Virus record (IMG/VR): IMGVR_UViG_3300045988_146535
DNA: 36,473 nucleotides
Reading direction: 5' to 3' (one strand)
DNA from: a virus
Taxonomy: Duplodnaviria; Heunggongvirae; Uroviricota; Caudoviricetes
Positions 1 through 36,473 of this stretch are shown one piece after another; position 1 is the first letter of the stretch; the number at the start of each line of letters is the position of its first letter. Made by a program: the position numbers and the translations under genes. Below the pieces are notes generated by a model that saw only the letters and a program-made list of their open reading frames with translations, made no database searches and was not told the origin of the DNA.

Positions 1-160
1 GATGAAAAGACTGTAGGCTGAACTTTTGTCAGCCTATTTATGTTCTTACTACTCTACATTACCTTCGTCATATCTGTATCCATGCAGCCATGTTAAAAAA
101 TCAACAGAAAAAACCATAAAATCTTCTTCGTATAATGTGTCAGGTATATTTTTTATTGAA

Positions 161-276
161 CTTTGTGCCACTGATTTTATCTTCAAAATCAACTCACATT
201 CTGCACAGTTCAACGAATTACGTTGCAGAGCGGTGTTCCGGTCATTTGTTGATACGCGTACATACCCAATAAGCAT
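161..276 (-). pseudogene. Remnant of a Pin/Gin/Hin-family serine DNA invertase (N-terminal ~38 codons only; frameshifted, then unrelated AT-rich sequence)
   Basis: Minus-strand translation from ATG at 274-276 gives MLIGYVRVSTNDRNTALQRNSLNCAECELI, the canonical invertase N-terminus from memory; after a single-base slip the -1 frame still reads EDKISGTK, then similarity ends near 161. The listed ORF 49-312 does not continue as a recombinase. Confidence 0.6.
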
Positions 277-330
277 GGTAGCTCCCCCTGGCAAAAGCAG
301 GAATGATGCCATTTGCTCGTTATTTCTGCA

Positions 331-356
331 TTTTCATAAACGTTGGTTTGGGAGAA
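331..356. repeat. Left crossover site of the invertible tail-fibre segment (26 bp, imperfect dyad)
   Basis: ttttcataaacgttggtttgggagaa; its reverse complement matches the right site at 2179-2204 in the first 14 positions and about 21 of 26 overall (hand alignment). Confidence 0.6.
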
Positions 357-824
357 GGCTCTGCATTACCTGTTGGTGTCCCTGTTCCGTGGCCTTCAGC
401 CACTCCGCCAACAGGCTGGCTGAAATGCAACGGAGCAGCTTTTTCTGCTGAAGAATACCCGGAACTGGCAAAGGCTTACCCGACAAATAAATTGCCAGAT
501 TTACGTGGTGAGTTTATTCGTGGCTGGGATGACGGGCGTGGTATTGATGCTGGACGTGCTTTATTGAGCCTTCAGGCTGGGATGCTGGAAAAACACCGCC
601 ATATTGTTGTTGCCAATGATGGTTACGACACAAAAGATGAATGGGAACTGGCTACGATTTTCAAAAAAACATACACACAAGGACGGGGACTTGATGCCAC
701 AAATACAGGAGGGAGTCTGATCCCATCACCGACACTTCATTCACGAGGGAGTATCGGTAATACTGGCGGGAGTGAGACCCGTCCACGAAATATTGCATTT
801 AACTTTATCGTGAGGGCTGCATAA
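345..824 (+). CDS. Alternative tail-fibre C-terminal variable segment (silent orientation; no own start, expressed only after inversion)
   Basis: ORF 303-824; from the crossover site it reads NVGLGEGSALPVGVPVPWPSATPPTGWLKCNGAAFSAEEYPELAKAYP, a tail-fibre C-terminus-like sequence. Confidence 0.55.
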   Translation, partial: GLGEGSALPVGVPVPWPSATPPTGWLKCNGAAFSAEEYPELAKAYPTNKLPDLRGEFIRGWDDGRGIDAGRALLSLQAGMLEKHRHIVVANDGYDTKDEWELATIFKKTYTQGRGLDATNTGGSLIPSPTLHSRGSIGNTGGSETRPRNIAFNFIVRAA

Positions 825-1426
825 TGGATAACGCAGTATTAAATAGCGAGTTTATTGCCACGAAGGCGGGGAATATTACCGTCTATAACTACGATGGTGA
901 AACTCGGGAATATATTTCTGCATCAACTGAATATCTTGCAGTGGGTGTCGGTATTCCAGCATATTCCTGTTTAGACGCTCCTGGTACATATAAGGCTGGT
1001 TATACAATTTGCCGTTCTGTAGATTTAAATTCATGGGAATATGTGCCAGACCATCGCGGTGAAATCGTCTATAACACCGAAACGGGAGATGCCAAAGAAA
1101 TCACAGCACCGGGTGATTACCCCGAAAATACAACCACTATCGCCCCATTAACGCCATACGATAAATGGGATGGTGAGAAATGGGTGACCGATACTGAGGC
1201 ACAGCATAGCGCCGCAGTAGACGCGGCAGAAGCACAGCGTCAGTCACTGATTGATGCTGCAATGGCTTCCATCAGTCTGATTCAGCTGAAATTACAGGCC
1301 GGACGGAAGTTGATGCAGGCAGAAACAACCCGGCTTAACGCTGTGCTGGATTACATTGACGCGGTGACGGCAACAAATACCAGCACAGCGCCGGATGTCA
1401 TCTGGCCTGAACTGCCGGAGGCGTAG
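824..1426 (+). CDS. Tail-fibre assembly protein (partner of the silent fibre segment)
   Basis: 200 aa; C-terminus TSTAPDVIWPELPEA resembles the end of the minus-strand Tfa (TSGAPDIEWPTPP); convergent with it. Confidence 0.65.
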   Translation: MDNAVLNSEFIATKAGNITVYNYDGETREYISASTEYLAVGVGIPAYSCLDAPGTYKAGYTICRSVDLNSWEYVPDHRGEIVYNTETGDAKEITAPGDYPENTTTIAPLTPYDKWDGEKWVTDTEAQHSAAVDAAEAQRQSLIDAAMASISLIQLKLQAGRKLMQAETTRLNAVLDYIDAVTATNTSTAPDVIWPELPEA

Positions 1427-1841
1427 GCCATTCAATATCTGGCGCCCCGGAAGTATCGACCAGTTCCAGTGCGTCCAGATAATCCAGCCACAAATTATAT
1501 TGCGCCAGCTCGTCCCCCTTCAGGCGACCAATAGCTGCTTTACCAGGCCATTGCCTACTGTTCATGTATTCGTTGGCATGGTTAATCAATAATTGCCTCT
1601 CTGATTCGGCCTGTTCAATAAGTTCCTCATGTGATGGTGGAGGTATTTCAGCCCATGTGGGAAAACCATTTTCCCCTGCAACTCGGATTTTCCCTTGTGG
1701 CGGTTCCGCCATATATTTTACAGAAATGTCATCAGGAATATCTAATGCATCAGCAGGCCATGTTCCATTTACTTCATAAGTGTTTTTTAAATTAACAGCA
1801 TAAAAAGCATTTTCCGAAGGGGAATAAATATATTGATTCAT
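1398..1841 (-). CDS. Tail-fibre assembly protein (Tfa), expressed orientation
   Basis: 147 aa directly downstream of the tail-fibre gene on the same strand; Tfa-like C-terminus. Confidence 0.7.
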   Translation of the reverse strand: MNQYIYSPSENAFYAVNLKNTYEVNGTWPADALDIPDDISVKYMAEPPQGKIRVAGENGFPTWAEIPPPSHEELIEQAESERQLLINHANEYMNSRQWPGKAAIGRLKGDELAQYNLWLDYLDALELVDTSGAPDIEWPTPPAVQAR

Positions 1842-1842
1842 A

Positions 1843-2481
1843 TTATCTTCCTATTGCGATAATCATAGTTCCATACAAACCATTTCCGGTTGATACTTTT
1901 AAAGTTACTGATGTCCTTGTTGTCGTGTACCCCATAAGTTTAAAGGTCGGAGCAGCCGTTAATGAGCCATCTGACCATAAGGCACTAACAGCTAGTGCGC
2001 CTGAAGGAAATGCAATAGGGAAATTACCTGTAGTTCCGTTAGTGTCCGCCCCATAAACATTCATCGAAAACATTTGGACAATATGACCACTTGGTAACTG
2101 AAACCAGTTTTTGCCAGATGGAAATGCAGACATATCTGGTATCTGATTTTCCCCTGTTCCCACATTCCGTTTTGCCGCTTCTCCCAAACCAAGGTTTTCG
2201 AGAGCCGTTTTCACCGTGCCATCCGATTTGATATCGCCAAACGGATTTTTGCGACTTAACAGCAGCGCACGAAGCGCGGTAAGCAGCTGGTCGTGCCTCT
2301 CCTTCTCCAGGCTGGCACCGGATGCCTCCACCACGCTACAAAGCTCTTCCTGCAACATGTCAAAGTAGTCATCATCCAGATCGGTGGCAGGCGTGCCGGT
2401 CTGGGGGTTGCCACGGGTAAAACCGTTCTTACCCGCGCCGAACTTATCCTTCTGCGCGGTTTTCGTGTCTATGCGATGCAT
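1843..2481 (-). CDS. Side tail-fibre protein (constant N-terminal part outside, variable C-terminal part inside the invertible segment)
   Basis: 212 aa; crossover site falls at residues ~94-101; position after the baseplate genes. Confidence 0.7.
2179..2204. repeat. Right crossover site of the invertible tail-fibre segment (26 bp, imperfect dyad), inside the tail-fibre gene
   Basis: ttctcccaaaccaaggttttcgagag; half-sites TTCTCCCAAACC / GGTTTTCGAGAG around a central AA; overlaps the codons for ENLGLGE. Confidence 0.6.
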
Positions 2482-4118: not shown

Positions 4119-4533
4119 GCGTTATCGCACTCCACAGATCATCAAAAGAAATCATTACCGGTCCGTCACGACGCCAGAGGGTGATACTGTTACCCAGTTC
4201 ATTAATCCCGGTGCGGCGGATATCCAGATCAATACGGGACACCACGCCGTCATCAATCATCCATTGCAGGCATTCGCGGATATACCCCCTTACCGTCAGC
4301 ACCAGCTGATTGGTCAGTTTGCTGCGCTGAAGCAGCCACAGTCGGGAGCCGTAACGGTCATTCTGTACCGCAGGCCAGGTATCCCCCCACCATCCCATCG
4401 GGACGTCGGCGTTGTCATCAGGCTCCGCCCGCCGCCAGGTAAACAGGGAAATCACCACGGCGCGGGTCAGCGGATCCAGCGGTGCGCTGGCGCAGGTGCG
4501 TTTACCGTTCACCGTCAGCCACAGTTCCATCAT
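4105..4533 (-). CDS. Baseplate protein (Mu gp46-like)
   Basis: 142 aa between the gp45-like and J-like genes. Confidence 0.6.
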   Translation of the reverse strand: MMELWLTVNGKRTCASAPLDPLTRAVVISLFTWRRAEPDDNADVPMGWWGDTWPAVQNDRYGSRLWLLQRSKLTNQLVLTVRGYIRECLQWMIDDGVVSRIDLDIRRTGINELGNSITLWRRDGPVMISFDDLWSAITHGGQ

Positions 4534-10765: not shown

Positions 10766-12261
10766 TATGCGGACTCCTCTGAATACTGAAGACGGAACTG
10801 GTTAACCACGGCAAAGACACGCAGCTGGTTAACATAGTCAGGCGGGAACAGCGTGTTCAGGCGGTCCGGATCGCTGGCATCACGCTCCACAACCAGGTAC
10901 TGCTTAAACAGTTCGTAGTTTTCCACGATCCCCACACGCTCAAGCTGACGGTAGGTTGCCAGCAGTTCCCCTTTGATCACCGCCGGAGTGACAATCGCCT
11001 GACCGGGACCAAAGCGGGTACCGTCACTGGCAAGCTTGTGACGCCCGTACTTACTGGTAATGACGGATTTCAGTTTGCGCAGTACATACGCGCTGGTATG
11101 CAGCGTCTCACTGTCGAGGTAGCTGTTATCCGCAACCCCGTAAGCGTTTTTCCTGTACGTGGTGACATCACGCTGAATGCGCAGTACCCCGCTTTCGACA
11201 TACGCCGTTGCCACGCCATGAGACAGCAGGGTCTGTTGTTCGGTCATCGTGAACCGTTTCCCCTTCGGCGCAGGCAGCATACCCACCAGCTCACCGGTCT
11301 GCGTGGGACGTGCCGGATCGTTGCGGATAAACACCGCTGCGCGGGCGGTACGGCTTGCCGCCAGCTCGTCGGCAGGCGTCTGGGTCTCTTTTTCGTACCC
11401 CGCCAGGGTAATGTGCTGCTGGTTAAACTGGTCACCTGCGGTCACCAGTTCTGACAACGTGCCGATCTTTGCCGTATACACATGACCATACAGCTGACGC
11501 GCATAGCTCCAGCGACCGCTGGTATCGTTCATCTCGGTCACCAGCGTGTTAACGGAGGCCGTGTCGTTGAACGGCAGACCGATATAATCAAACGGCTCAT
11601 CCGCCATTGCAGCCACCGCGCCGGTGAGAACAGGAGCCCCCGTTCCGGCGGTCCCCGCCGCCACGGCAATCTGTACGCCCGCTGGCAGCACTTCGCCCCC
11701 ACCAAAGCCGTAGTAATTGAGGCTGACAGGAATTTCATTCCCGCAAAGCCCCTTATGACGCGCGGTCAATGTAACCACGCCAGCCGAAGATGAGGCCGTA
11801 AACGGCAGGGCCGGAACGGCATTGATGGCATCTTTGATACTGCTGGCAATCGTCGCGACGTTATCGCCGTTGGTCACCGGTGCCTGCACGCGGGTACGTC
11901 CCACATAAACATTCACCGTGCCGGTTTCGGTTGCCGCGCCGGTCACCGTCAGCGTAACTGTTGCCGCCGCGCCCGTGGATTCAGGAACGGCAATCACATA
12001 CAGTTCACCAAACGGGTCGGTCTGGCGATAAGCCTCGACCATACGCGCCAGCTGACTTCCCGCACCACAAATCTGGCGTGCATAGTCTGCCGATGGCATC
12101 AGCACCAGACTGTTGGCAACAATCTCTGCACCGTTATTGGCATGACCAATCAGCAGCGATGCCCCGCTGTCCTGTGCAGTATTCGCCGCCTGGTTATCCA
12201 TTTCCGCATAAAACAGCGGAACCAGCGTATTCGACGGAATGGTGTTAAAGCTTATCGTCAT
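10765..12261 (-). CDS. Contractile tail sheath protein (Mu gpL-like)
   Basis: 498 aa; size and position. Confidence 0.75.
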   Translation of the reverse strand: MTISFNTIPSNTLVPLFYAEMDNQAANTAQDSGASLLIGHANNGAEIVANSLVLMPSADYARQICGAGSQLARMVEAYRQTDPFGELYVIAVPESTGAAATVTLTVTGAATETGTVNVYVGRTRVQAPVTNGDNVATIASSIKDAINAVPALPFTASSSAGVVTLTARHKGLCGNEIPVSLNYYGFGGGEVLPAGVQIAVAAGTAGTGAPVLTGAVAAMADEPFDYIGLPFNDTASVNTLVTEMNDTSGRWSYARQLYGHVYTAKIGTLSELVTAGDQFNQQHITLAGYEKETQTPADELAASRTARAAVFIRNDPARPTQTGELVGMLPAPKGKRFTMTEQQTLLSHGVATAYVESGVLRIQRDVTTYRKNAYGVADNSYLDSETLHTSAYVLRKLKSVITSKYGRHKLASDGTRFGPGQAIVTPAVIKGELLATYRQLERVGIVENYELFKQYLVVERDASDPDRLNTLFPPDYVNQLRVFAVVNQFRLQYSEESA

Positions 12262-23240: not shown

Positions 23241-24350
23241 ATGAAGAAAATCGAAAAACTGTTCACTGAAGTAATACGGAAGTTGCGCCATAAGAAATTT
23301 ATGCGCTCGATAGCTAGTAAAAGAAGCACAACAGAAAGAAAGCTAAAACGTAATGGAAGTTTAAAAAAAATCGCTCCAGAGAAAATACTTGCTCCAACCA
23401 TACTTGATATTTACAAGGCGGAATATCATGAGAATGTGGTTAATTTTATAGAAAAAATAGAAAACAAAGCAAAGACAGGAAATAAAAAGATATATATATG
23501 TTTTAGAAATACAATTCATATATCGGCTGCTGCTGGCTTATTTCTTCTTGCAAAACTAGAGACGTTAAAAAGCAATCATAGGGACTTAAAATATATCGTA
23601 GCCAAACCGCCAATCAAAACTTCATCAAAAGGAGAACAGCACGTTGTTGATTCTGTTTTGAACAGAATCGGAATCTATGCAGCATTAGGTGTTAAATCAA
23701 GAGAAATGAGAGAAACTCCGTCTGTAAAATGTTGGGAGGTAATTCGTGGCGAACTAGTAGATTCGGAAATTGCAGGAAACTTATTAGAAACAATCACAGA
23801 AAAAATGGGTACCGATTATACAGATTTATATCGTCCCTTGATAGAAGCCATGTCTAATTCAGTAGAACATGCATATCGAGACGATTTATATGACTCAAAT
23901 AAAAATAACAATAAAAATAAATGGTGGTGCTTTGCTGCAATTATGAACAACAAGTCAATTATGAACAACAAGTTAATATTACTAATTTGTGACCTCGGTG
24001 TAGGTATACCTAAAACGTTAAAACTTACTCAAGGTGAAAAGGTTCTTGCAAAGCTAACCGAGTTCCTTGGTAAGCCATTAGTCCTTGATTCAGAACATAT
24101 AAAAGCCTCATTGCAGGTTAAACGAACCCGAACAAAGCTTGGATACAGAGGGAAAGGAGGAACTGATTTACAATCTATCATAGAAAACTTTGAAAATGCA
24201 CAATTACGAATTATATCCAACAAAGGAAATTACAGATATACTCATCGTAAGAAAGCAAGACCAGAGTTAATGTGGGATGCCAAACATTCCATCAACGGTA
24301 CTATAGTTGAATGGAGCGTACCGCTACCAAATGAAGGAGACTCTCAATGA
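23241..24350 (+). CDS. GHKL/HATPase_c-type ATPase (RsbW-like serine-kinase fold) with an uncharacterised N-terminal region
   Basis: 369 aa; N-box-like EAMSNSVEHAY, G1-like ICDLGVGIP (DxGxG) and G2-like GYRGKGGTDL; visibly AT-rich; opposite strand to the flanking late genes. Confidence 0.6.
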   Translation: MKKIEKLFTEVIRKLRHKKFMRSIASKRSTTERKLKRNGSLKKIAPEKILAPTILDIYKAEYHENVVNFIEKIENKAKTGNKKIYICFRNTIHISAAAGLFLLAKLETLKSNHRDLKYIVAKPPIKTSSKGEQHVVDSVLNRIGIYAALGVKSREMRETPSVKCWEVIRGELVDSEIAGNLLETITEKMGTDYTDLYRPLIEAMSNSVEHAYRDDLYDSNKNNNKNKWWCFAAIMNNKSIMNNKLILLICDLGVGIPKTLKLTQGEKVLAKLTEFLGKPLVLDSEHIKASLQVKRTRTKLGYRGKGGTDLQSIIENFENAQLRIISNKGNYRYTHRKKARPELMWDAKHSINGTIVEWSVPLPNEGDSQ

Positions 24351-24664
24351 AAACCTTATTTATCAAGGACTTTTCAAGATTCCCGGGGCCTAGATACGAA
24401 AGGTTAGGTGAAAACAGTGGCGAAAAATTCCGCGATTTATTTTTGATACCAGCACTTAACGAAAATCCAGACTTAGTCATTGACTTTGATGGTGTTTTTG
24501 GCTATGGCTCATCTTTCCTTGAGGAGGCCTTTGGAGGTTTGGTGCGTAAAGGGATAGAGCGCGAAAAATTGGAGAAGCTTAAGAAGAATCTCAAAAGTAA
24601 AGATCAATACATTATTGAGGAAGTAATTTCATATATTGATGATGCTCTGCGAGATCTAAAATAA
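24347..24664 (+). CDS. STAS-like small protein (DUF4325-like, anti-sigma-antagonist fold)
   Basis: 105 aa; VIDFDGVFGYGSSFLEEAFGGL matches the DUF4325 core pattern as I recall it; start overlaps the stop of the upstream gene. Confidence 0.5.
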   Translation: MKTLFIKDFSRFPGPRYERLGENSGEKFRDLFLIPALNENPDLVIDFDGVFGYGSSFLEEAFGGLVRKGIEREKLEKLKKNLKSKDQYIIEEVISYIDDALRDLK

Positions 24665-25125
24665 TGGACACTGACGTTACTCAGAATTTATGGACAATGC
24701 CTGCAACGATTATAGCGATTGTTGGCATTTTTTTAACAATATTAGGCTGGATAGTTACAGCAATACTTACTCGCATTAACAATGCGAAGAATTTAAAAAA
24801 ACTAGAAATAAATAGACTTATTGATGAGTTATTTTATAAATTAGATTTTATTTATAGCGAAATGCTTGAATTGCTGCGAGACGATAAAAAAGACAAACAA
24901 GTCCTATATTACATTTTTACATCATCAGTAAGGCATGTTGAGTTTATTTGCGAGCGAATTGAACTATTAGACAACAAAAAAAACAAAGACAATGGATTAA
25001 TATCTGAATTAAGACAAGCATGTACTAACGATGCGAAATATGAAAAAGAAAAAATTGGAACAACATTACATGAAATCCAAAGCGCTAATGAAAAACTCAA
25101 AAACAAATATCTGAAATCATTTTAA
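24664..25125 (+). CDS. Membrane protein (one N-terminal transmembrane helix, charged coiled-coil-like C-terminal region)
   Basis: 153 aa; transmembrane segment ATIIAIVGIFLTILGWIVTAILT; ATGG overlap with the upstream stop. Confidence 0.55.
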   Translation: MDTDVTQNLWTMPATIIAIVGIFLTILGWIVTAILTRINNAKNLKKLEINRLIDELFYKLDFIYSEMLELLRDDKKDKQVLYYIFTSSVRHVEFICERIELLDNKKNKDNGLISELRQACTNDAKYEKEKIGTTLHEIQSANEKLKNKYLKSF

Positions 25126-35023: not shown

Positions 35024-35373
35024 TGGAGCCATACAGCCTCACACTCGATGAGGCCTGTCATTTTCTCAAGATATCCAGACCGACTGCCATTAACTGGATA
35101 CGCACAGGGCGTCTTCAGGCAACACGCAAAGATCCCACTAAGAATAAATCTCCTTACCTCACAACACGACAAGCCTGCATTGCGGCTCTTCAGTCTCCGC
35201 TGCATACTGTCCAGGTGAGCGCGGGTGATGGCATAACAGAGGAAAGAAAATGTCACTCTTCCGCAGAGGTGAAATATGGTACGCCAGTTTCACATTGCCG
35301 AACGGTAAAAGATTTAAACAGTCTCTTGGAACAAAGGACAAAAGGCAGGCGACAGAACTCCATGACAAGCTAA
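35023..35373 (+). CDS. xis: Excisionase (HTH), 3' end overlapping int
   Basis: Starts [31 protein letters not shown] (HTH) at an ATG overlapping the upstream stop; about 116 aa, overlapping the integrase start by ~124 nt. Confidence 0.5.
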
Positions 35374-36413
35374 AGGCTGAAGCATGGCGGGTCAGCAAAC
35401 TTGGTGAAATACCTGATATAACGTTCGAGGAAGCGTGTGTCAGGTGGCTTGAAGAGAAAGCACATAAAAAATCACTGGACGATGACAAAAGCCGGATCGG
35501 ATTCTGGCTTCAACATTTCGCAGGAATGCAACTAAGAGACATTACTGAATCAAAAATTTATTCAGCAATGCAGAAAATGACGAACCGGCGTCATGAGGAA
35601 AACTGGAAACTCAGGGCAGAAGCATGCAGAAAAAAAGGGAAACCTGTTCCAGAATACACGCCAAAACCAGCGTCCGTTGCAACGAAGGCTACGCATCTTT
35701 CATTTATAAAGGCCCTACTAAGAGCCGCAGAGCGTGAATGGAAAATGCTGGATAAGGCACCAATTATTAAAGTGCCTCAACCAAAGAATAAACGGATCCG
35801 CTGGCTGGAGCCCCATGAAGCACAAAGGCTGATTGATGAATGTCCGGAGCCATTAAAGTCTGTTGTTGAATTTGCACTGGCAACAGGCTTAAGACGCTCG
35901 AACATCATCAACCTTGAATGGCAACAAATAGATATGCAGCGCCGGGTGGCATGGATAAACCCGGAAGAGAGTAAATCAAACCGCGCAATTGGCGTTGCGC
36001 TGAATGATACTGCATGTCGCGTATTGAAAAAACAAATCGGGAATCATCACCGTTGGGTATTTGTGTACAAGGAAAGCTGTACCAAACCAGACGGAACGAA
36101 AGCGCCAACAGTAAGGAAGATGCGGTATGACGCAAACACAGCCTGGAAAGCGGCGCTGAGACGGGCTGGTATTGATGATTTCAGATTTCACGACTTGAGA
36201 CACACCTGGGCAAGTTGGCTGGTTCAAGCCGGAGTCCCGTTGTCAGTGTTACAGGAAATGGGAGGCTGGGAGTCTATCGAAATGGTTCGTCGATATGCTC
36301 ACCTTGCACCTAATCACCTTACCGAACACGCACGGCAAATAGACTCGATCCTGAACCCATCGGTCTCAAATTTGTCCCAGTCAAAAAATAAGGAAGGTAC
36401 TAATGATGTGTAA
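35250..36413 (+). CDS. int: Tyrosine integrase (phage integrase family)
   Basis: 387 aa; N-terminus [34 protein letters not shown] typical of P22/SfV-type integrases; C-terminal R...[10 protein letters not shown]...Y catalytic motifs; adjacent to the tRNA 3' end. Confidence 0.9.
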
Positions 36414-36427
36414 CTTATTGATTTTAA

Positions 36428-36473
36428 TGGTGCCGATAATAGGAGTCGAACCTACGACCTTCGCATTACGAAT
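36428..36473 (-). tRNA. thrW: tRNA-Thr 3' portion (partial, runs off the window end); probable attachment site
   Basis: Reverse complement of the last 46 nt is ATTCGTAATGCGAAGGTCGTAGGTTCGACTCCTATTATCGGCACCA, the anticodon-arm-to-CCA part of a tRNA; matches E. coli thrW from memory. Confidence 0.7.

Follow-up and report, generated by a model that had tools for sequence, protein, structure and literature searches.

We found that a viral DNA stretch of 36,473 nucleotides (nt) (IMG/VR record IMGVR_UViG_3300045988_146535; this whole stretch is called the window) carries an invertible tail-fibre locus whose own invertase gene has been reduced to a short 5′ stub. The locus is most probably an orphan host-range switch that is still flipped by a Pin-like serine invertase of another prophage or plasmid, and that is locked only in the absence of such an enzyme. 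The same stub adjoins both orientations of the segment, a second inversion is seen in a draft genome, and both junction types occur in single samples, indicating that the switch is not frozen. The features of the locus are as follows (aa, amino acids; ORF, open reading frame).

1-159, no strand: DNA that has taken the place of the 3′ four-fifths of pin, consisting of the hairpin-containing 3′ flank of a convergent DUF4145 cargo gene
160-276, minus strand: invertase (pin) stub, 117 nt, corresponding to nt 1 to ~119 of a pinE-like gene, roughly 39 codons
187-258, no strand: stretch homologous to the recombinational (Fis) enhancer by alignment of cin, gin, pinE and the stub; enhancer function is putative
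331-356, minus strand: crossover site L, adjoining the pin stub, with its centre at 343-344
345-2190, no strand: invertible segment, measuring ~1.85 kb from one site centre to the other; five complete genomes have it in the opposite orientation
345-824 (ORF 303-824), plus strand: silent alternative fibre C-terminus, StfE-like (Pfam Collar, E = 1.2e-15), in frame with the GLGE of the site
824-1426, plus strand: TfaE-like tail fibre assembly chaperone that goes with the Collar-type tip (Pfam Caudo_TAP, E = 2e-30)
1398-1841, minus strand: TfaP-like tail fibre assembly chaperone that goes with the tip expressed at present (Pfam Caudo_TAP, E = 1.4e-32)
1843-2481, minus strand: expressed tail fibre gene, 212 aa by its ORF and translation (Pfam Gp53-like_C), made up of a constant N-terminal part (2205-2481), the site-encoded LENLGLGE (2179-2204) and a variable Gp53-like_C tip (1843-2178)
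2179-2204, plus strand: crossover site R, within the fibre gene, TTCTCCCAAACC AA GGTTTTCGAGAG, with its centre at 2191-2192

The two 26-bp sites are imperfect dyads and are inverted relative to each other. Site L reads TTTTCATAAACG TT GGTTTGGGAGAA on the plus strand and TTCTCCCAAACC AA CGTTTATGAAAA on the minus strand, and the central dinucleotide is AA (TT on the opposite strand) in both sites. The half-sites match each other at 8/12 and 9/12 dyad positions in the sites at 331-356 and 2179-2204, respectively. The site cores (338-357 against 2178-2197, 20 nt, 95% complementary) were returned by a repeat finder as the top inverted-repeat pair in positions 1-2600. The 14-mer TTCTCCCAAACCAA, common to L and R, has exactly two copies in the window, one per strand; the chance expectation, even with up to two mismatches, is 0.35 matches. 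A consensus scan ranked R (21/24) and L (20/24) above all others, the next best of ~6350 candidates scoring 14/24, and no further good crossover site was found in the window and 6 kb of its left flank. In comparison with the e14 prophage of MG1655, L matches the pinE-side site and R the stfP-side site, each at 26/26 positions. The published repeat of the e14 P segment, TTGGTTTGGGAGAAGG, equals window 343-358 (PMC12529663). Both sites also align with the P1/P7 cixL site (reverse complement TTCTCTTAAACC AA GGTTTAGGATTG) and the Mu gix site (TTCCTGTAAACC GA GGTTTTGGATAA) taken from the phage records.

An earlier note on this DNA had proposed that two inverted 26-bp sites bracket convergent fibre/Tfa pairs in the architecture of the Mu G, e14 P and P1 C switches, and had suggested aligning the sites with the gix, hix and pix consensus. 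The coordinates, repeat finder, ORFs and Pfam assignments agree with this proposal, and so do the identity to the e14 sites and the cixL and gix alignments. The two gene pairs do converge, a Collar ORF and a Caudo_TAP gene on the plus strand facing a Caudo_TAP gene and a Gp53-like_C tip on the minus strand. The note had also placed the right site inside the expressed fibre gene at a GLGE junction, where we read LENLGLGE, and had the silent plus-strand segment begin with the same GLGE, with which the ORF translation agrees. The silent ORF runs across the left site as ...INVGLGEGSALPVG, with VGLGE|GSALPVG at the junction, and the expressed fibre continues across the right site into ...|AAKRNVG. 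Residues 1 to ~100 of the expressed fibre are nearly identical to those of e14 StfP; the tip diverges, and the overall identity is 61%. In the opposite orientation the Collar-type tip is fused to the constant part, giving a fibre of 256 aa. The TfaE-like chaperone (824-1426) has 88.5% amino-acid identity to e14 TfaE, and the TfaP-like chaperone (1398-1841) has 55% identity to e14 TfaP over its C-terminal part. The DNA of the silent Collar-type tip with its chaperone (window 335-1478) has ~92% identity to the stf C-terminus and tfa of HK97, and cassettes resembling this pair are also found in P2-like and Klebsiella phages. These similarities indicate that the cassettes are common to unrelated tail types.

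We then investigated the invertase gene. Alignment to pinE of K-12 and of muskdeer13-4 shows a 1-nt deletion in a T run at window 185-188, soon after which the pinE homology ends. The earlier note had the invertase cut to about 38 N-terminal codons with a frameshift, which is borne out nearly to the codon. The Pfam Resolvase profile matches the stub at profile positions 2-31 only, with 17.3 bits, under the cut-off, and the RefSeq annotation of this stretch in the sister genomes described below is 'recombinase family protein; frameshifted; incomplete'. An intact adjacent serine invertase, with a catalytic domain and a C-terminal helix-turn-helix, is lacking; pinE is represented by the stub only. 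No pin homology was found left of position 160 in any collection searched. A diverged continuation of pin in that stretch, where DTLYEEDFMVFSVD loosely resembles RTLSAGDTLVVWKLD of Pin, was considered and rejected, since the Pfam match stops at profile position 31 and the DNA similarity at 160.

The DNA that replaced the rest of the gene belongs to a cargo module. In PSUO2 (locus L003), the DUF4145 coding sequence ends one base before window position 1. The 1-159 flank occurs in 6/5426 complete Escherichia coli genomes and adjoins the stub every time; the DUF4145 module is likewise present in 6/5426, each time with the truncated pin. Phage and plasmid collections yielded no source for window 1-159 and the DUF4145 cargo, the pin stub alone being matched. 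The position downstream of pin serves as a cargo slot whose content varies. In the present prophage (L003 4000-6036, left of the window) it holds DUF4145, a 146-aa ORF and a 95-aa ORF; in muskdeer13-4 it holds a retron Ec67 reverse transcriptase and a GIY-YIG protein, in EC6563 a retron Ec48 reverse transcriptase and effector in addition, and in e14 mcrA.

The window was compared with five complete E. coli sister genomes (PSUO2, FDAARGOS_1267, B1172, AST216 and AF5). Window 1-335, which includes the stub and the 159/160 junction, is present at 100% identity in all five, and 338-2197 lies on the opposite strand in all five. Among complete RefSeq E. coli genomes, none was found to combine this left flank with the window's orientation. 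Apart from the inverted segment, PSUO2 is 99.94% identical to the whole window over 36 kb; the five range from 99.94 to 100% and differ from the window by at most 3 substitutions. When the window is re-inverted at any breakpoint within 343-357, there are 0 mismatches to PSUO2 in 2600 bp, and the exchange between L and R thus falls within 343-357, an interval that includes the centre. The outer half-sites are fixed and the inner ones are swapped, which is the pattern expected for exchange at the site centre. The six 36-kb sequences, once re-inverted, form a star: 1 single nucleotide polymorphism (SNP) and an 18-nt duplication are private to the window, and each of the other sequences has 0-2 SNPs of its own. 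As a test of repeated flipping, this SNP tree of six full-length sequences contains singletons only and resolves no more than 'recent'. The earlier note had suggested looking for both orientations in a population, and by genome comparison both are indeed seen among near-identical stub-bearing prophages.

A more distant carrier, EC6563, has the same stub/DUF4145 junction and the window's orientation and is only 97% identical in the region. An identical junction in this lineage indicates that the truncation predates the divergence of the lineages and is older than the flip. The two cassettes compare differently with those of EC6563 (L020): the Gp53-type cassette (window 1400-2200) shows ~50-65 differences per 100 nt, and the Collar-type cassette is ~93-99% identical per 100-nt bin. 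On this comparison, one cassette appears to have been exchanged independently of the other between stub-bearing lineages.

In the draft genomes L010, L011 and L013, the segment is oriented as in the window and is joined to the stub and DUF4145. Two metagenome contigs, L005 and L006, cover precisely 303-2232, the segment with an added 55-mer that ends at each repeat boundary. L004 (metagenome SAMEA11123499) starts in the pin-side flank, crosses the segment and re-enters the pin-side flank, taking in the stub and DUF4145. L012 (GCA_958401325.1) follows the corresponding path on the fibre side, from that flank across the segment and back into it, stopping 127 nt beyond the repeat. The paths of these four contigs indicate that both junction types were present in the reads of single samples.

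A second inversion was found to involve one further sequence, which lies outside the window.

~1.7 kb left of window position 1 (L010 ~12176-12201; PSUO2 L003 ~4311-4336), no strand: quasi-site T, TTCTATAAACTC AA GGTTTATTACTA

Quasi-site T lies inside the 95-aa cargo ORF, which is not a fibre gene, and matches the half-site consensus at 14/24 positions, joint third of the ~6350 candidates after R and L. In the draft genome L014 (GCA_044678415.1), a 2069-bp inversion between L and T (L014 2226-4294) has flipped the pin stub, DUF4145 and the 146-aa ORF. At both of the new junctions, the sequence in common with the parental DNA is limited to CAA, exactly where the 26-bp sites have their centres. 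A 3-nt shared sequence at the site centre is a signature of a Hin-family recombinase and not of homologous recombination. Since T lies within the DNA that replaced the invertase, the L × T event took place after the truncation, with an enzyme from elsewhere. We also considered a designed three-site shufflon and rejected it, because T is weak, lies in a non-fibre ORF and was used in one examined contig only.

These observations suggest the following mechanism. Exchange at the central AA/TT of L and R would flip the 1.85-kb segment and thereby join the constant 100-residue N-terminal part to either the Gp53-like tip (212 aa, as in the window) or the Collar-type tip (256 aa), each convergent cassette supplying a fibre C-terminal tip together with its own assembly chaperone. 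The resident invertase has been cut to its 5′ stub, the remainder being replaced by cargo DNA including the DUF4145 gene, and a Pin-like serine invertase from a co-resident prophage or plasmid would drive the flipping in trans. The retained stub offers a Fis-enhancer-homologous stretch at its native distance from site L.

Action in trans is a known capability of Din-family invertases, and cross-complementation among them has long been known. One precedent is PinQ, encoded by prophage Qin, which inverts the P segment of e14 (PMC12529663); inversion of that segment is ongoing in clonal cultures (PMC4272514). In PMC4272514, the Fels-2 invertase is cited as contributing to Salmonella hix/flagellar phase variation (Kutsukake 2006). 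We searched for other invertases in the carriers with chimeric queries, which join a lineage-specific flank to the 3′ part of pinE or to pinQ and give counts of matching places, intact or not, on chromosomes and down to ~70% DNA identity. DNA like the 3′ part of pinE, which is absent from the stub, is present in 4699 of the 5426 complete E. coli genomes, and the flank-plus-pinQ query matched 2971 genomes, nearly all through pinQ-like DNA. One further pinE-like place was counted in each of FDAARGOS_1267, AST216 and AF5, plus one pinQ-like place in FDAARGOS_1267; for EC6563 the counts are three pinE-like and two pinQ-like places. The earlier note had considered the switch probably locked unless an enzyme is supplied in trans. 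Its lean towards a locked switch does not stand, given the same stub in both orientations and the L014 inversion, whereas a supply in trans is what the comparison indicates.

Several points weigh against a switch that is still in use. Within the scope of these queries, the chromosomes of PSUO2 and B1172 have no pinE-like or pinQ-like DNA elsewhere, which suggests that at least some carriers are probably locked, and a trans-acting invertase in the window's own host cell is hypothetical. Flipping is read here from the comparison of genomes. In the metagenomes, the presence of two strains side by side, and not flipping in a single clone, could account for the heterogeneity. Exact protein matches support both states, placing 32 contigs (212-aa fibre) or 35 (172-aa silent ORF) in the window's state and 192 (256-aa fibre) or 117 (128-aa silent ORF) in the opposite state, but these counts may take in relatives with an intact pin. 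Finally, enhancer activity could be impaired by the loss of a terminal C and by the 1-nt deletion, both of which are described below. From the enzyme searches, the switch is probably conditional: many hosts would allow it to flip, and some would keep it locked.

We then investigated what the stub retains. The Cin enhancer is annotated at cin nt 19-90 in the P1 record and at nt 19-86 in the P7 record, and when the stub is aligned with cin, gin and pinE, this stretch falls at window 187-258, wholly inside the stub. A Fis-like 15-mer (G-N13-C) at 241-255, GTATCAACAAATGAC, is identical in pinE and gin, and its centre is ~96 bp from the centre of site L. In the second, at 192-206, GTGCAGAATGTGAGT, the last base is T, compared with C in pinE, gin and cin. 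Just past this second 15-mer, where the enhancer homology has its distal edge, comes the 1-nt deletion. In the Hin system, a 65-bp enhancer bounded by a Fis site on either side is located ~100 bp from hixL (PMC3798978). L, R and the enhancer homology keep their native spacing, and the deletion removed only protein-coding sequence beyond them. It is conceivable, though we put it forward only tentatively, that the stub persists as the carrier of a cis-acting Fis enhancer, the invertase itself having been outsourced to Pin-like enzymes of the other prophages that most E. coli harbour. The stub alleles of the two lineages differ at 1 position within 160-258, too few to tell selection from chance. 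If outsourcing were true, both fibre plasticity and occasional collateral inversions at quasi-sites would depend on co-resident prophages.

Other explanations have to be weighed against an orphan switch flipped in trans. The first concerns the role of the fibre rather than the inversion: a chimeric fibre of one orientation may primarily serve the lysogen in defence, by blocking the adsorption of other phages. The e14 StfE2 protein, from the homologous P segment, has been reported to act against T2 (PMC12529663), and the cargo slot next to pin holds defence genes in relatives (retron Ec67, retron Ec48 and e14 mcrA). However, the prophage in the window looks complete, unlike e14 (integrase, repressor, lysis, head, tail and baseplate genes are present), so that virion host range is the simplest function, and its variable tips are only ~60% identical to those of e14. 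We consider a primarily defensive role improbable; it would in any case add to the inversion mechanism and not replace it.

Alternatively, the locus might be a frozen fossil, locked since the loss of the invertase, with both orientations predating the truncation. That the invertase is clearly dead, that one orientation prevails throughout the five complete sister genomes and that two of these sisters have no detectable pinE-like or pinQ-like DNA elsewhere on the chromosome would all fit. Yet a truncation arises on one DNA molecule in one orientation, and the identical stub junction is found with both orientations in prophages that differ by 0-3 SNPs per 36 kb, as well as in the 97% lineage. 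The L × T inversion used a site in the replacement DNA and hence required recombinase action after the truncation, and both junctions occur inside single assemblies. A fossil is very unlikely on these grounds.

An origin without any invertase is likewise very unlikely, whether through RecA recombination at the inverted repeats of 15-20 bp or through a stub module passed by recombination from one prophage to another of different orientation. The L × R exchange is placed only within the 15 identical nucleotides at 343-357, as short-homology recombination would give, and cassettes have visibly been exchanged between lineages, the Gp53-type cassette of EC6563 being very different. Repeats of 15-20 bp, however, are a very poor substrate for RecA, and the L × T inversion shares only 3 nt, placed precisely where the two 26-bp sites have their centres, for which homologous recombination offers no explanation. 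The sites themselves are proven substrates in e14 (PMC12529663). An assembly artefact by mis-joining at the repeats has a negligible probability, for although some draft or metagenome contigs are chimeric through the segment (L004 and L012), the 20-bp repeat is shorter than assembler k-mers, five independent complete genomes agree and each state is found in dozens of independent assemblies.

Among known systems, the e14 P segment with PinE of K-12 is alike in both sites at every position, in the gene order ymfQ - stfP - tfaP - tfaE - stfE - pinE, in the nearly identical constant fibre N-terminus, in TfaE at the identity given above and in the pin-to-site spacing, with 88-96% DNA identity in the conserved parts. 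On the other hand, e14 lies at icd and is not complete, whereas the prophage here is complete and lies at thrW; the tips are only ~60% identical; and the segment is ~1.85 kb here compared with a published 1797 bp. Furthermore, e14 has a full pinE and mcrA in place of the 117-nt stub and the DUF4145 cargo.

The Mu G/Gin and P1/P7 C/Cin systems share two 26-bp sites within a fibre gene and alternative Sv/U and Sv′/U′ cassettes. Their half-sites align with ours (TTCTCCCAAACC here, TTCTCTTAAACC in cixL and TTCCTGTAAACC in gix), and the central dinucleotide is AA here, as in cix and pix, but GA in Mu. Their invertase genes contain an enhancer within the 5′ part, according to the P1 and P7 annotation, and only homology to it is kept here. 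They differ in having other fibre proteins and an intact invertase, which is lacking here, and the P1 site adjoins the 3′ end of cin, whereas here it is the 5′ end of the invertase gene that a site adjoins. The action of PinQ on e14 P and that of Fin (Fels-2) on Salmonella hix are alike in that the invertase of one prophage flips a segment elsewhere, which is the mechanism proposed here. In both of those cases the target has its own invertase, whereas a supply in trans would be the sole route for the present locus.

Cin is said, from the work of Iida and Hiestand-Nauer in the 1980s, to use secondary crossover sites (quasi-cix) at low frequency. T resembles these in being poor relative to the consensus (14/24), in its AA centre and in having recombined with a true site at the centre; it differs in that its use is known as a fixed rearrangement in one draft genome, L014, and in non-fibre cargo. 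Shufflon-like systems (Min of p15B and the three-repeat P2-like locus of enteropathogenic E. coli) have at least three good sites, which delimit several fibre cassettes, compared with two here. By the identity of its sites and by its gene order, the locus is a degenerate orphan member of the Fis-enhanced serine-invertase switches (e14 P, Mu G and P1 C), departing from them only in lacking an invertase of its own.

The window is a complete e14/SfV-like prophage at tRNA-Thr (thrW), beside proA. It combines lambdoid head genes with a Mu-like contractile tail. The integrase gene is at 35250-36413, and genes for a LexA-like repressor, replication, a Q antiterminator, lysis, terminase, portal and capsid are present, together with tail genes for the sheath, tube, tape measure and Mu-like baseplate, followed by the fibre module. 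The RefSeq annotations of the sister genomes use the e14 gene names ymfK, ymfT, ymfL, ymfR, ymfQ and tfaE. The right end of the window, on the tRNA-Thr side, has a 48-nt att repeat (36426-36473), of which PSUO2 has another copy 5.1 kb to the left of the window start (L003 879-926), indicating that the integrated island extends past the window. The extra stretch of the island contains a GntR/aminotransferase gene and an EamA transporter gene, with an integrase Arm-domain remnant beyond.

A plus-strand island of three genes (23241-25125) lies between the lysis genes and the Q antiterminator, against the direction of the surrounding late genes. Its products are 369 aa, 105 aa (annotated as STAS-like) and 153 aa long, and the island may be a moron or a defence cassette. 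The first ORF (23241-24350) contains the 18-nt duplication, an in-frame tandem repeat of CAATTATGAACAACAAGT (two copies) at 23950-23967, which is private to the window and absent from 5/5 complete sister genomes. A PADLOC scan of the cargo proteins and of this island returned nothing meaningful, the best E-values being ~0.003.

Din-family inversion of tail-fibre cassettes is a textbook mechanism. To this mechanism the present locus adds natural evidence of flipping after the decay of the invertase, a retained stub with enhancer homology and an inversion at a quasi-site. Annotation pipelines would call such a locus a dead pseudogene with two 'partial' fibre genes, and a host-range prediction from a single assembly would overlook the alternative fibre. 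The carrier isolates come from a chicken peritoneal cavity (PSUO2), a blood culture (AF5) and other human sources, and lysogens for experiments exist among them. The enhancer-homologous stub left by the deletion provides a test case for whether a gene remnant may be retained as cis-acting DNA. Flipping that, on the comparative data, went on after the recombinase was lost supports the idea that prophage invertases are shared, trans-acting functions in the lysogen.

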